A stretch of 64,000 nt of DNA, from assembly GCA_038087875.1 (NCBI GenBank), contig CM075991.1, forward strand, positions 12,340,001-12,404,000. The letters run 5' to 3'. Each line of letters begins with the position of its first letter. The first letter of the stretch is position 1. A model generated the notes under the pieces. The model did no database searches. It was given only the letters and a program-made list of their open reading frames with translations, and was not told where the DNA came from. Source of the stretch: Malacoraja senta. Taxonomy: Eukaryota. This document shows positions 313 through 55,871 of this stretch, one piece after another. A program made the translations under genes and the position numbers.

Positions 313-1154
313 GGCAGCCGATGGGACTTCTCAATCTTCCCCTCCCCTTGCTGGCGTGACCTCAGTGGTCAGATGTCCACCCCCCACCCCCGTCCCCCAA
401 TCTGACTGGGTGTTGGACAACTCTTGGTCAATGTGCAGACTGGTGCAGTTAATGTTGTCTTGCCCACCCCACCATCGCATTGTTGAATCCTTCTCAGCCG
501 TCGGCAATGCTTGAAATACTCATTGCTTCAAGGGCAGCACAGTGGCGCAGCGCGTTCTCCCTGTGACCGTGTGGGTTGTCTCCGGGTGCTCCAGTTCCCT
601 CCCACATCCCAAAGACGTGCACAGTTTGTGGATTCATTAGCTTCTGTAAATTGTCCTGAGTGTGTAGGGTAGAACCAGCATTTGGGTGATCATTGGTCAG
701 CGTGGACTTGGTGGGCTGAAGGACCCGTTTCCACACTGTATCTCTAAACTAAACACAGTGCGATGTTGATCTTTTGCGGAGTTAAACCAGGGCAGGATCA
801 CAGTGAATGATATTGTCCTGGGGAGTGTTGTAGAGCAGATTGGTCGAGGAAAACAAGTACATAGTTCTCTCAAAGTGACGTTCCAGATGAAGAAGGCTCT
901 TGCGACATTGTCTTCATCAGTCAGGGTAGTGAATATAGAAGATAGACACAAAAAGCTGGAGTAACTCAGCGGGACAGGCAGCATCTCTGGAGAGAAGGAA
1001 TGGGTGACTTTTCGGGTCGAGACCCTTCTTCAGACTGAAAGTCACAGAAAAGGGAAACGAGAGATATAGACGCTGATGTAGAGATATAGAACAAATGAAT
1101 GAAAGATATGCAAAAAAAGTATCAATGACAAAGGGAACAGGTCATTGTTAACTG

Positions 1155-1460
1155 TTGTACCAGACATTTGTGAGGCTGCATTTGGAACACTATGTTCAGT
1201 TTTGGTGCAGGGAAAAATGCTATGAAGCTGGAGCGAGGGCAGAAAAGATTTGTGAGGATGTTGCCAATACCGGAGGGCCTGAGCTATGGGGAGAGGTGGA
1301 GGTGAGGGGTGATCTTATAGAGGTATATAAAATCATGAGGGGAATAGATAGGGTGAAGGCACTGGGTCTCTTTCTCAAGGGAGGGAGGGGTGAATCAAGA
1401 ACTAGAGGCATTGGTTAAAGTGAGAGGGGAAATATTTAATAGGAATCTGAGGGGCAGCCT
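1155..1460 (+). mobile_element. Degraded CR1 LINE fragment
   Basis: VRLHLEHYVQFW...RGDLIEVYKIMRGID. Confidence 0.75.
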
Positions 1461-1619
1461 TTCCAAGGTGGTGATTCCAGCCTCTTTGTGCTTTGCCTGA
1501 GGAGTAGTTCCTAGAGTGATCACTAGATAGCGATCACAAGCAGCACATCTGTCCAAGGCTAGCTCCCTATAAGACAAGTGGACTCACAGAGATATATAAC
1601 AAAACAAAGTAACGTTTTA

Positions 1620-1950
1620 CTCAGAAGATAGATGCAAAATGCTGGAGTAACTTAGCGAGACAGGCGGCATCTCTGGGGAGGAGGAATGGGTGACGATTCG
1701 GGTCGAGACCCTTCTTCAGACTGAAAGTTACAGAAAAGGGAAACGAGAGATATAGTCGGCGATGTAGAGATATAGAACAAATGAATGAAAGATATGCAAA
1801 AAAAGTATTAATGATAAAGGGAAAAGGTGAGAACGAAAGTTGATGTGATTTGGGTGGGGGAAGAATTGCCAGAGAGAGGGAATGCAGGGGTTACTTGAAG
1901 TTAGCGAAATCAATATTCAATATATGGCTTGTAAGCTGCCCAAGCGAATG
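1620..1950 (-). mobile_element. Penelope-like element 3' fragment (GIY-YIG C-terminus, 3' region, degenerate hammerhead-bearing terminal repeat)
   Basis: Minus strand of 1870-1949 reads FRLGSLQ..NIDFANFK*, then runs into CTGAAGAAGGGTCTCGACCCGAATCGTC and the common terminal-repeat segment. Confidence 0.65.
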
Positions 1951-52149: not shown

Positions 52150-53155
52150 ATGCATTGATGGTGCCGAAATAGAGATGGTTGAAAGCTTGATGCTCCTAGG
52201 AGTAAATATCATCATCTGCAACTTGTCCTGGACACCGACAACTCTACTTCCTCAGAAGGCTAAAGGGCCTGTCCCACTTGGCAATTTTATCGGCGACTGT
52301 TGGCATCATTGACCTACGTATCAGGTCACCGAAAAAGTCGCGGCGTGAGAAGGAAGAGGTGGCATGCGGTGTGACGCGGCGTGATGACGTATTGACGCGC
52401 GGTGTTTCCTCAAGTGTCACAACATTTTTTTTGTCACCGCTGGATTTTGAAATGTTCAAAATCTTTCGGCGACCCTGATACGTCAGTCAATGACGCCGCC
52501 AGTCGCCGAAAAAAATCGCCAAGTGGGACAGGCCCTTGAGGTAGTTCGACATGTCCCCAAAAACTCTCGCCAACTTCTACAGATGCGCCATACAAAGCAT
52601 TTTATCACAGCATGGTTTCGGAACAGCTCCATCCAAGACCGCAAGAAATTGTGAGAATTGTGGATGCAGCCCAGACCATCACACACACAAACCAATCTCC
52701 CTTCTATTGACTCCATCTGTACTTCAAGCTGCCTCAGCAAGGCCAGCAGCATAATCAAGGATGAATCTTACCCTAGTCACTCCCTCTTCTCCCCTCTCCC
52801 ATCGGGCAAAAAGTAATGTAGTGTAAAAACACACACCTCCAGATTCAGGGACAGTTTCTTCCCAGCTGATATCAGGCAAATGAATCATCCTATCACCAAT
52901 TAGAGAGTGGTCCTGACCTCCCATCTACCTCATTGGAGACCCTCAGACTATCTTTAATCAGATTTTACTGGACTTTATCTTGCACTAAACATTATACCCT
53001 TTATCCTGAATCTGAATACTGTGGACGGCTTGATTGTAATCATGGATAGTCTTTCCATGATAGACTGGATAGCAGCAATAGAAATCTTTTCATTGTACCT
53101 CGATACACATGACAATAAACTAAACTACACTAAAATAAAATAAAATAAACTAAAC
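52150..53155 (+). mobile_element. Rex1/Babar-type LINE 3' part, interrupted by a MITE
   Basis: KTLANFYRCAIQSILS...ASIIKDESYPSHSLFSPLPSG; (CTAAA)n tail. Confidence 0.75.
52264..52536. mobile_element. Harbinger-type MITE (family B) inserted in a Rex1-type LINE
   Basis: AGGGCCTGTCCCAC...GTGGGACAGGCCCT; TAA/TGA flanks. Confidence 0.85.
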
Positions 53156-53795
53156 AAGAATCAATGGTTGAAGTCAAGGCAAAGAAGACTGATATGGAAA
53201 AAGAACTCTTCAGAAATGTGTAGGAAGAAACTGCAGATGCTGGTCTAAACAGCAGATGGACACAAAAAGCTGGAGTAACTCAGCGGGACAGGCAGTATCT
53301 CCAGAGAGAAGGAATGGGTGATGTTTCGGGTCAGTCTGAAGAAGGGTCTCGACCCAAAACGTCACCCATTCCTTCTCTCCAGAGATGCTGCCAGGCCTGC
53401 TGAGCTACTCCAGCTTTTTGTGTCTATCCATGGTTTGGAGGGATATTGGCCAAACATGGGCAGATGGACCAGCGTAGATGGGGCACCTCGGTCGACATGG
53501 GCAGGTTGGGCCGAAAGGGCCTGTTTCCATGTTGAATGACTCTACAGTGCTAAGTAGTTAGGATATGGAATGCCAGGGCACTACCAGCTTCGTGGTGAAG
53601 GCAGGTTCAATGCCATAATTCAAAGGAGAGCTGGGTAAGTATTTAAAAGGGGAAAAAAACATATTGGTGGTTGTGGTGAGAAGGCGAGTTGGACTTGCTG
53701 CTTTGCTCTATTTTACAGAATTTCCATGGCCTTGATGGGCCGAATGGCCTAGCTGTGTGCGGTAACCTTTCAGGGAATCTGTGCCATTAATGAGC

Positions 53796-53903
53796 GAGAG
53801 AGAGAGAGAGAGAGAGAGAGAGAGAGAGAGAGAGAGAGAGAGAGAGAGAGAGAGAGAGAGAGAGAGAGAGGAGAGAGAGAGAGAGAGAGAGAGAGAGAGA
53901 GAG
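53796..53903. repeat. (GA)n microsatellite
   Basis: Direct inspection. Confidence 0.95.
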
Positions 53904-55871
53904 ATGGCAGAAACTGCAATATTAATGCTCTGTCCTTCTCAGTATCACTTCCTCCTCCAGGTCTCACCAGCTGAGTCATGCCGCAGTCTCTAAACTGGTT
54001 TATCCTGAAACTTGATCAGAGATGCATGTTAGTGCAGAAGGTGAACTGCACCCTTTTGCATGCAGCAAGGCACAGGCTGGCCTAGACATTCCTGTACAGA
54101 CAGCAGGATGCTCTACACTGTCCTATCACTGAGAAGGTGTAGAACCTTCCAGTGTTGTATGGGACTCCGGCCCGAGGATAACCTGCTGCCTGGAAACAAG
54201 TCTACTGACTCACTCCCTCTACTCCCCTTCCCCATCAGGCAAGAGCGACAGATGATTGAAAACACACACCTCCAGATTTAGGGATAGTTTCTTCCCAGCT
54301 GTTATCAGGCAACTGAACCATCCTACCACCAGCTAGAGAGTGGTCCTGACCTCCTATCTACCTCATTGGACCCTTGAAATATCTCTTATCGGACTTTATC
54401 TTGCATTAAATGTTATATCGTTTCATACCTGTAAGTTCCTAAAGTCATAGGAGCAGAATTAGACCATTCAGCCCATTGAGTCTACTCTACCATTCAATCA
54501 TAGCTGATCTATCTTTCCCTCTCAACCCATTCTCCTGCTTTCTCCCCTTTATCTTGTACCTGTACATTGCGGACGGCCTGATTGTAATCCTGTATAGTCT
54601 TTGATTGGTTAGCTCGCTAAACAAAAGCTTTTCACTGTACCTCAGGGAACATGACAACAATAAACTAAATTAAACTAGATTCTCCGGCACTGCGTAAATC
54701 TGGGGCCTGGATTCATACATTGAACATTAGTGGGATTAGATGGGAGGGTGACAAGGGTCAGAGGGTCAGTTGTGATGTTATTTGTTGGCCCGTTAGATTC
54801 CGAGGCAGAATGCCTGCTGTGTGTTTTGCTTTTCCAAATAATCACAGGTACAGCACCCAAGAAATTTGCCCCCATGTATACCAGCACGGCAGGAATGCAA
54901 CAAAGTACCAACCATTGACAGAAGGGTCTCGACCCGATTCCTTCTCTGCAGAGATGCTGCCTGACCCGCTGAGTTACTCCAGCTTTTTGTGCCTACCAAC
55001 CATTGACTGGCTGTTATGAATCAGTTCATAAATTCCTAGTCCCAACCAGCTCACCTTGACAAAGAGCTGCCCTCCACCTGCACAGCTTCAAGGTGAGAGG
55101 GGCAAAGATTAAAGGAGATGTGCGGGGCAATTTTTTTTAACACAGGTAGTTTATGGAATTCCCTGCCACAGAGGGCAGTGGAGGCCAAGTCACTGGATGG
55201 ATTTAAGAGAGAGTTGGATAGAGCTCTAGGGGCTAGTGGAGTCAAGGGATATGGGGAGAAGGCAGGCACGGGTTATTGATAGGGGATGATCCGCCATGAT
55301 CACAATGAATGGCGGTGCTGGCTCGAAGGGCCGAATGGCCTCCTCCTGCACCTATTTTCTATGTTTCTATGTTTCTATGTTAGTGGCGGGTGGCTGGAAT
55401 GGTGGTGGTGATGGAGGCAGATATGATCGTGGCGTTTGAGAGGCTTTTAGAAAGGAACATGGATATGCAGGGAATGAAAGGATACAGATCACTTGCAGGC
55501 AGAGATTGGTTTAACTTGGCATTGTATACAGCACGGACTTTGTGTTCCTGTGTTGTACTGTTCTGTGTTCTAATTTCTTTAGTAGGTCACTTTGGTCAGC
55601 AGACCGGGTTTTTAATTAACCAAGTAATTAAGAGTAAGTGGGGCCAACGAGGGAGGTCATGTATTATACACCACAGTTTGAATGCAGAGGCCAGCCACAA
55701 AGTGCTGGAGTAACTCAGCGGGACAGGCAGCATCTCTGGAGAGAAGGAATGGGTGACGCTTTGGGTCGAGACCCTTCTTCAGACTGAGAGTCAGGGGAGG
55801 GGGAGACATAGAGATATGGAAGGGAAGGGTGAGAAAAGGAGAGATCAAAGGGGACGATTATACTTCATACG

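Follow-up and report, generated by a model that had tools for sequence, protein, structure and literature searches.

What process has scattered a small ribozyme motif, the hammerhead, so densely over one stretch of skate DNA? The stretch in question, here called the window, comprises 64,000 nt (positions 12,340,001 to 12,404,000 of contig CM075991.1), and the initial annotation had interpreted the repeat family that carries the motif as a high-copy, largely non-autonomous, retrozyme-like ribozyme system linked to Penelope-like elements (PLEs). Our analysis leads to a different view. The repeats are, with high probability, short separate insertions of the terminal-repeat module of PLEs, likely of the Neptune type, whose copying likely ran off near the upstream edge of the hammerhead and which now decay without sign of selection. 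This module consists of the hammerhead motif, a downstream hairpin region of about 65 nt and an optional tail. The window is a real and abundant instance, in a new host, of PLE terminal-repeat fragments with minimal hammerheads, and it holds no retrozyme. Element positions are given with C3 of the hammerhead as +1, which places the predicted cut between +28 and +29; comparisons with published work refer to the available parts of the cited sources.

The pattern CTGANGA-N5-22-GAAACGTH matches the window four times, at 3634-3661(+), 33596-33623(-), 45614-45641(-) and 18556-18583(-), versus a mean of 0.01 over 100 shuffles, and the 28-mer core with up to three mismatches has 14 matches versus none in 100 shuffles. 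The first three sites are exactly those at which intact cores had been annotated. An nhmmer profile built from 12 window copies detects 88 fragments in the window and none in five shuffles. These represent 53 loci and 6,705 bp, that is 10.5% of the window, with a local density of about one locus per kb, so that the family is bigger than originally listed. All 13 copies previously described as decayed are among the 88 matches, with the restriction that those at 4134 and 9312 lack the CUGAnGA half. In these two and in the copies at 23207 and 47867, which together belong to three subfamilies, stem II follows CTGAAG directly, so that three letters are missing; the cause may be a stop at +6 common to these copies, with microhomology in the flank, or else slippage within GAAGAAG. 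Up to E 10, Rfam returned 28 matches in the window with no hammerhead family among them, and its miRNA matches were rejected as head-to-head pairs of the hammerhead repeat. Exact-pattern scans of metagenome and of viral contigs yielded zero matches each.

Column counts from 24 hand-picked copies that reach C3 bear out a Penelope-linked minimal type I hammerhead in which the palindrome ACGU stands in for helix III. The majority sequence reads CUGAAGA, an extra A, a 4-bp stem II with a tetraloop, GAAA and ACGU sharing A15.1, with C or U at position 17; in the type I order CUGAnGA...GAAA...UH the majority base matches at every core position. The palindrome at 15.1-16.1 is ACGU in the majority, and C15.2 and G16.2 are each retained in 18 of 24 copies, losses being mostly of the CpG type. 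The extra base between A9 and 10.1 is A in 22 copies, pair 10.1-11.1 is G-C in 18 and G.U in four, and in helix I the first pair forms in 20, the second in 19 and the third in three copies. Such minimal hammerheads (min-HHRs) reside in the pseudo-long terminal repeats (pLTRs) of metazoan PLEs including Xena, Poseidon and Neptune of fish (Cervera and de la Pena, 2014; PMC4209133). The core CUGAnGA plus GAAA, the additional base before stem II, G10.1-C11.1, the palindromic 15.2-16.2 and the lack of helix III are the same, as is the occurrence described there of thousands of dispersed single motifs stemming from truncated PLEs, some of them in opposite-strand pairs. The window differs from that description in its stem II (4 bp versus 6-8), in its helix I (2 bp followed by A.C and C.Y mismatches, versus 4-5 bp in S. 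mansoni and likewise 2 bp in D. virilis) and in its host, a skate, unlike the hosts mentioned in that source (PMC4209133).

Few copies are complete. All core bases are kept in seven of the 24, core and ACGU palindrome in four, these and the four stem II pairs in three, and all of this together with a 2-bp helix I in the copy at 45614-45641 only. The earlier warning that helix I is short and that many copies may be inactive was well placed. Nearly every copy is missing something that the ribozyme requires, and the family therefore likely represents dead remains of an already known type of element and not a new RNA system that cuts itself. Folded as monomers, the three intact cores do not exceed shuffles in stability (z +0.4 to +1.7), and the active dimer of the best copy reaches -7.1 kcal/mol versus -27.2 for the lowest-energy dimer, about 20 kcal/mol apart in a nearest-neighbour model that is blind to core contacts. 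The hammerhead was probably of importance only in the master elements, where it would have worked as a weak ribozyme, either as a dimer or with the help of protein. Two details of the initial annotation did not stand up. Position N7, given as A, T or G, is A in 21 copies, G in two and T in one, which looks like decay. The two stem II sequences, taken as a sign of maintained pairing, are versions of the same 4-bp stem with tetraloop that differ by one loop base and a one-sided change from U-A to U.G; no two-sided change occurs at any of the four pairs in the 24 copies, and the covariation argument thus fails.

A likely connection to PLEs is visible at 1614-1950(-), where the module is preceded by a pyrimidine-rich untranslated region (UTR) and a frameshifted, probable GIY-YIG remnant of about 20 codons (1872-1950), which shares 81% identity over 75 nt (E 2e-13) with a better preserved one at 9559-9631. 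The latter reads EQHLIFHLGSLHPSGMN, and 10 of 18 residues match the C-terminus of Neptune1_Ap by eye (supplement of PMC8557442); judged from this likeness, the element likely belongs to the Neptune clade. The annotated contiguity of motif and probable GIY-YIG C-terminus is seen again here; its coding part shrinks to the short frameshifted remnant and finds no support in databases. A protein search with the remnant at 9.5 kb gave no match at E up to 1 and no Pfam family, and a repetitive 293-aa match (P0001) was dismissed as an artefact. Three stretches are concerned:

1614..1950, minus strand: longest element piece, with GIY-YIG C-terminal remnant (1872-1950), pyrimidine-rich 3' UTR, hammerhead at 1692-1719 (A15.1 changed) and downstream module.
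9537..9631, plus strand: another Neptune-like GIY-YIG C-terminal remnant, better preserved, with about 21 codons ahead of a frameshift, then the start of the 3' UTR.
930..1142, minus strand: sister copy of 1623-1828, with 206 bp (92%) of UTR and hammerhead in common; the stretch used for read placement.

The manner in which the copies sit in their flanks is that of PLE insertions. Direct repeats scoring at least 10 are present at 14 of the 53 loci versus 1.5% of 400 mismatched flank pairs, although at about three of the 14 they do not abut the element. Among 14 chosen insertions of 74-310 bp, 13 possess a target site duplication (TSD) of 10-15 bp and one of 6 bp. Neighbouring copies within 130 bp are arranged head-to-head in 16 cases and tail-to-tail in three (p 0.004), or 13 and two when duplicated and nested cases are removed (p 0.007); the apparent pairs 29658/29840 and 8096/8196 were excluded as nested or adjacent insertions. 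Five head-to-head pairs each lie inside one TSD. Tails are found on exactly one arm in eight of 12 pairs, on neither arm in four and on both in none. A 5'-truncated pLTR, an adjacent inverted copy, a tail of 30-40 bp at one end and a TSD of 8-10 bp characterize the insertions of endonuclease-positive PLEs (PMC8557442, PMC3846280), and 5' truncation, inverted adjacent copy, one-end tail and TSD are all found here. The insertions in the window are unusual for such units in being very short, in the length of their TSDs, in the clustering of their 5' ends at the upstream edge of the hammerhead and in inverted arms of sometimes only 10-23 nt. The individual insertions are as follows, with head-to-head pairs given as unstranded:

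3622..3762, plus strand: 141-bp insertion, 14-bp TSD; 10-nt inverted mini-arm, core 3634-3661 truncated at C3 (no 5' strand of helix I), downstream module, tail.
4133..4223, plus strand: 91-bp insertion, 10-bp TSD, starting inside the 5' core half.
4859..5053, unstranded: head-to-head pair, 12-bp TSD; the two arms 98% alike and only the left one tailed.
9298..9400, plus strand: 103-bp insertion, 12-bp TSD, UUCG-loop subfamily.
18455..18601, minus strand: 147-bp insertion, 11-bp TSD; core 18556-18583 intact, stem II damaged, mini-arm and tail.
22968..23114, unstranded: tight head-to-head pair, position 16 joined to -1 with 3-nt overlap, tail on the position-16 arm.
23189..23331, plus strand: 143-bp insertion, 15-bp TSD, 13-nt inverted mini-arm, tail.
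23490..23712, unstranded: older head-to-head pair, 10-bp TSD.
29842..29929, plus strand: 88-bp insertion, 12-bp TSD, nested in the UTR of the older copy 29658-29758(-).
33551..33860, unstranded: 310-bp head-to-head pair, 12-bp TSD; left core 33596-33623(-) with 1-bp helix I, right arm at 33732(+) with G12 changed and a tail.
36485..36608, unstranded: 124-bp head-to-head pair, 15-bp TSD, both arms starting downstream of the hammerhead.
41021..41230, unstranded: 210-bp tight head-to-head pair, 14-bp TSD, position 16 joined to -2 with 4-nt overlap.
45550..45646, minus strand: 97-bp insertion, 14-bp TSD; hammerhead 45614-45641, the sole one of the 24 with core, ACGU, 4-bp stem II and 2-bp helix I.
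45837..46027, unstranded: tight head-to-head pair, position 16 joined to the TCAGT/GGTC edge.
53220..53428, unstranded: tight head-to-head pair, position 16 joined to -4 with 2-nt overlap; the position-16 arm is tailed; G12 changed.
54920..54993, plus strand: 74-bp insertion, 14-bp TSD.
55679..55820, minus strand: copy that includes about 35 nt of UTR; its core 55755-55782 carries two changes.

Where the copies begin was evaluated for the 51 arms, out of 63 non-array matches, that align with a score of at least 60. The cut site is spanned by 41 arms and only one starts within +28..+31. Of 31 arms that reach +8 or beyond, 21-22 stop between -5 and +7, and the stop rate at -4..+8 is about six times that at +9..+45 (p below 2e-7). 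Sequence runs from two organisms, coded F and B, which may not be the window's species, agree with this picture. When RNA reads (runs X23 and X21) and DNA contigs (runs X10 and X2) were placed on 925-1150, depth just upstream of TCAGT fell 33-fold in X23 and 15-44-fold in X10 and X2. The numbers placed, which are not copy numbers, were 50,767 of 12.9 million reads (X23), 53,865 of 17.6 million reads (X21), 322,678 of 24.9 million contigs (X10) and 303,779 of 22.8 million contigs (X2), so that this stretch accounts for 1.3% of the contigs in each DNA run. A pile-up of starts or ends at the cut or anywhere else on 925-1150, as the initial annotation had led one to look for in RNA, did not appear in any of the four runs, a weak test given fragmented short-read libraries. 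A strand excess in X21 was read as oligo-dT priming at an A-rich tract near 1118 and not as antisense transcription. About half of the sampled words of 33400-33900 are present in 14 runs not labelled as RNA from seven coded organisms, which again may not include the species of the window.

The copies show no sign of selection on catalysis. G12, which lies within a CpG, is changed in 11 of 24 copies, and in the reads and contigs on 925-1150 it is changed in 17-21% of depth versus 13-16% at a flanking CpG; the catalytic CpGs decay like those around them. Outside CpGs, 11 of 129 core cells deviate from the subfamily majority versus 154 of 1715 elsewhere (30 of 38 copies assigned to subfamilies), which means that at the level of copies the core is no better kept than its flanks. 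Subfamilies A (15 copies) and B (six) differ within positions 1-30 only at the loop base, at H17 and at two wobble-keeping sites. Differences confined to such tolerated sites would fit selection on master elements, a faint hint in view of the changed majority of the C2 group described below. Two further observations concern the subfamilies. In several of them the segment near +48..+56 (3675-3745, 18470-18540 and similar) has two alternative pairing partners, +77..+82 and the tail near +105..+113, and might act as a switch next to the two putative start sites of synthesis discussed below. Furthermore, an 80-nt upstream sequence precedes the hammerheads of two subfamilies at 32763-32844 and 33620-33703, 90% alike, inverted and 900 bp apart; either UTRs were exchanged or DNA close by was copied as the element inserted.

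For the PLE Poseidon_Ac, cutting and extension of both target strands have been reported, together with two internal start sites of synthesis that delimit the tail, uncut RNA as the main template and a hammerhead that cuts only in the presence of protein (PMC11167929). The head-to-head pairs, the tail on one arm, the TSDs, the uncut template and the two classes of 3' ends of the window resemble PLE insertion units (PMC8557442, PMC3846280) and Poseidon_Ac (PMC11167929). In the process that we favour, the PLE enzyme would cut both strands of the target and each target end would prime one cDNA. Reverse transcription would begin within an RNA that was presumably uncut, at two sites located about 60-65 nt and about 100 nt beyond the cut site. 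The enzyme would then run off the 5' end of this RNA at TCAGT, giving rise to the 5' cluster, and the two cDNAs would be joined, often through the short palindromes of the hammerhead. That the run-off takes place at an RNA 5' end is proposed because TCAGT resembles the metazoan initiator motif.

Several points weigh against this reading. About 39 of the 53 loci lack a clear TSD. The arms of a pair do not clearly stand out as each other's nearest match, the partner ranking among the top five of 62 in only five of 12 pairs. The fall in depth stems in part from differing UTRs among the subfamilies, nine to ten of the 31 arms continue upstream into the UTR, and one copy bounded by a TSD begins at -4, which lies upstream of where the RNA is presumed to start. 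The majority sequence of the C2 group (n=4) itself has CpG-type changes at G12 and C15.2. The GIY-YIG remnant is unsupported by two protein searches and by Pfam, the call comprising some 20 residues, and a motif scan for other pieces of PLE open reading frames revealed neither a full-length element nor a remnant of a reverse transcriptase domain or CX2-5CxxC linker in the window. A test of the inverted mini-arms, weak in itself, gave 5 of 45 inverted versus 6 of 45 same-direction matches, with 2.3% at random.

The alternative that survives best accepts the same PLE fragments but has reverse transcriptase blocked by the hammerhead fold, by a bound protein or at a 3' splice site, or lets the palindromes fold the cDNA back on itself, with the RNA starting elsewhere. 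We regard it as a real contender, albeit with the odds against it. It is favoured by the four tight pairs, in all of which GAC(C) at +16 meets the complementary edge at -4..-1, overlapping by 2-4 nt, and by the pyrimidine tract and CAG directly before UCUGA in UTR-bearing copies. It also has precedents: the Penelope intron of D. virilis ends at helix I (PMC4209133), and self-priming has been proposed for such palindromes (PMC3846280). Moreover, D. virilis Penelope has an internal promoter, and its RNA starts some 120 nt before the end of the intron, the point at which the hammerhead sets in (PMC2377424, PMC4209133); a splice-site or structural block therefore stays a real rival. On the other hand, stem II has only 4 bp and arms rarely stop inside it (5 of 51 start at 9..19), and among the best six loose ends of each RNA run none lies at the CAG. 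In two of the four tight pairs the +16 arm carries a tail that is absent from the partner from which fold-back would have copied it. Such an arm is not a simple fold-back copy, which favours two separately primed cDNAs.

A short master gene of hammerhead and tail that behaves like a short interspersed element (SINE), independent of full-length PLE transcripts and mobilized in trans, appears unlikely. Most copies are of nearly equal extent (95-130 nt), several subfamilies exist and one composite array occurs twice with different flanks (see below), as this idea would have it, yet the same subfamily is also joined to UTR and GIY-YIG sequence at 1614-1950, the 5' ends are ragged over 12 nt instead of fixed, and ARAGORN finds no tRNA in the window.

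The window also contains four arrays of a 66-nt unit that runs from G12 to +86 and keeps only the substrate half of the hammerhead, with no CUGAnGA on either strand:

25205..25370, plus strand: head plus one 66-nt unit, the head with an 11-nt deletion.
34870..35577, minus strand: composite array of head, 66-nt half-hammerhead units, inverted cassette of the UUCG subfamily, a further unit and tail.
48546..49181, minus strand: second composite array with the same internal cassette and other unit numbers and flanks; units 48552-48927 are 100% identical.
50575..50945, minus strand: chimeric head plus four 66-nt units.

Heads of different subfamilies switch into one and the same unit sequence. The inverted internal cassette common to 34870-35577 and 48546-49181, in arrays with differing unit numbers and flanks, suggests that the composite moved as a unit. 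Junctions of this type are also the best-supported RNA joints among the best 15 of 624: in X23 the joint from 1013 back to 955, with seven letters between, has 376 reads with 134 starts, and a related joint has 385 reads. One template jump followed by local expansion is the simplest origin for the arrays. Different joints occur in the DNA contigs, namely from 1038 back to 1006 with 2-7 letters between (five contigs of X2, one of X10), implying tandem units of 35-40 nt that are almost pure hammerhead, and from 1035-1038 back to 938-945 (4-28 contigs per joint in X2 and X10), implying hammerhead-containing units of about 100 nt or more; rare as they are, they suggest tandem whole-hammerhead units elsewhere.

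Metazoan non-LTR (non-long-terminal-repeat) retrozymes carry canonical hammerheads in units of 150-450 bp (PMC7229834) and have been defined by a tandem run of two or more units, all of them with a complete hammerhead (bioRxiv 10.64898/2026.07.22.740005). The family shares with them its non-coding, pLTR-related, hammerhead-bearing repeats and the tandem arrays in the window and in related runs (PMC7229834; bioRxiv 10.64898/2026.07.22.740005), and differs from the canonical units of PMC7229834 in that its arrays lack the 5' core and stem II; as the 66-nt units have no CUGAnGA, they fall outside that definition (bioRxiv 10.64898/2026.07.22.740005). A true retrozyme family, with tandem units transcribed, cut as dimers to monomers, circularized and reinserted by PLE enzymes, is therefore very improbable: the contig joints of X2 and X10, the composite non-coding array present twice and a preprint reporting tandem hammerhead repeats in the one chondrichthyan sampled (bioRxiv 10.64898/2026.07.22.740005) speak for it, and set against them are copies that are single TSD-flanked insertions, the complete absence from the window of a tandem unit with an intact hammerhead, the single arm among 42 spanning or starting at the cut that actually starts there, the missing RNA ends at the cut and the poor energy of the active dimer. 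In these respects the retrozyme-like interpretation of the initial annotation is not upheld, the joints and the duplicated array being what remains in its favour.

More remote still is the idea of the 66-nt unit as a half-hammerhead parasite that would borrow the catalytic half from complete PLE hammerheads via the dimer fold, be cut in trans to 66-nt monomers, circularized and copied by the PLE enzyme in rolling-circle fashion. The unit does keep the ACGU palindrome, the GUC cut site, the 3' strand of helix I and a hairpin next to the putative start of reverse transcription, and a parasite would explain why identical units follow heads that belong to several subfamilies and why their joint has the best support in RNA reads of skate type. 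When the 66-mer is paired in trans with a full hammerhead, however, the energy is -4.9 kcal/mol versus -9.4 for the separate strands. The arrays would matter more if they were cut in trans.

The surroundings identify the host and are in line with the chondrichthyan origin that had been assumed. An exon at 28369-28794(-) is 96% identical to a RAB11FIP1-like gene of Amblyraja radiata, the best 18 matches all being chondrichthyan, and Pfam recognizes the C2 domain of this gene at 46102-46611(-) and its RBD-FIP domain at 14282-14527(-).

14282-46611, minus strand: RAB11FIP1-like host gene, with C2 exon 46102-46611, RBD-FIP 14282-14527 and long exons 19894-21969 and 25966-26781.

From exon match and gene span it follows that the host is a skate and that many of the repeat copies are intronic. 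Inside the gene the copies show no strand bias (19 plus versus 17 minus with arrays collapsed; eight versus nine for copies bearing C3), and hence no sign of selection against sense hammerheads. At 1-312(+) lies the 3' end of a gene for a rhodopsin-family seven-transmembrane receptor (Pfam PF00001), presumably akin to the prolactin-releasing peptide receptor. Another dispersed repeat, about 230 bp long, is likewise abundant, with 19 matches that include 2694-2924, 25663-25902, 41671-41908 and 55873-56100; it resembles the HE1 SINE of cartilaginous fish. A degenerate (CA)n array of 7.6 kb occupies 56394-64000, directly after an assembly gap of 200 N.

Our search found no literature on hammerheads or PLE satellites in sharks or skates, although the supplements of PMC4209133 and bioRxiv 10.64898/2026.07.22.740005 may list such species; PMC6155905 was set aside as a precedent, 'shark' denoting only a shape in the part available. 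Fish, coelacanth, frogs and reptiles are known to have minimal hammerheads in PLE repeats, and skates are now added as hosts, at very high density. Poseidon_Ac inserts without cleavage. The many TSD-bounded insertions of the window preserve, as if in an archive, the points at which reverse transcription began and ended. This archive likely means that uncut RNA is copied, that both target strands are primed and that synthesis ends at the upstream edge of the hammerhead. It reveals no new system and provides testable points on the mechanism of PLEs.

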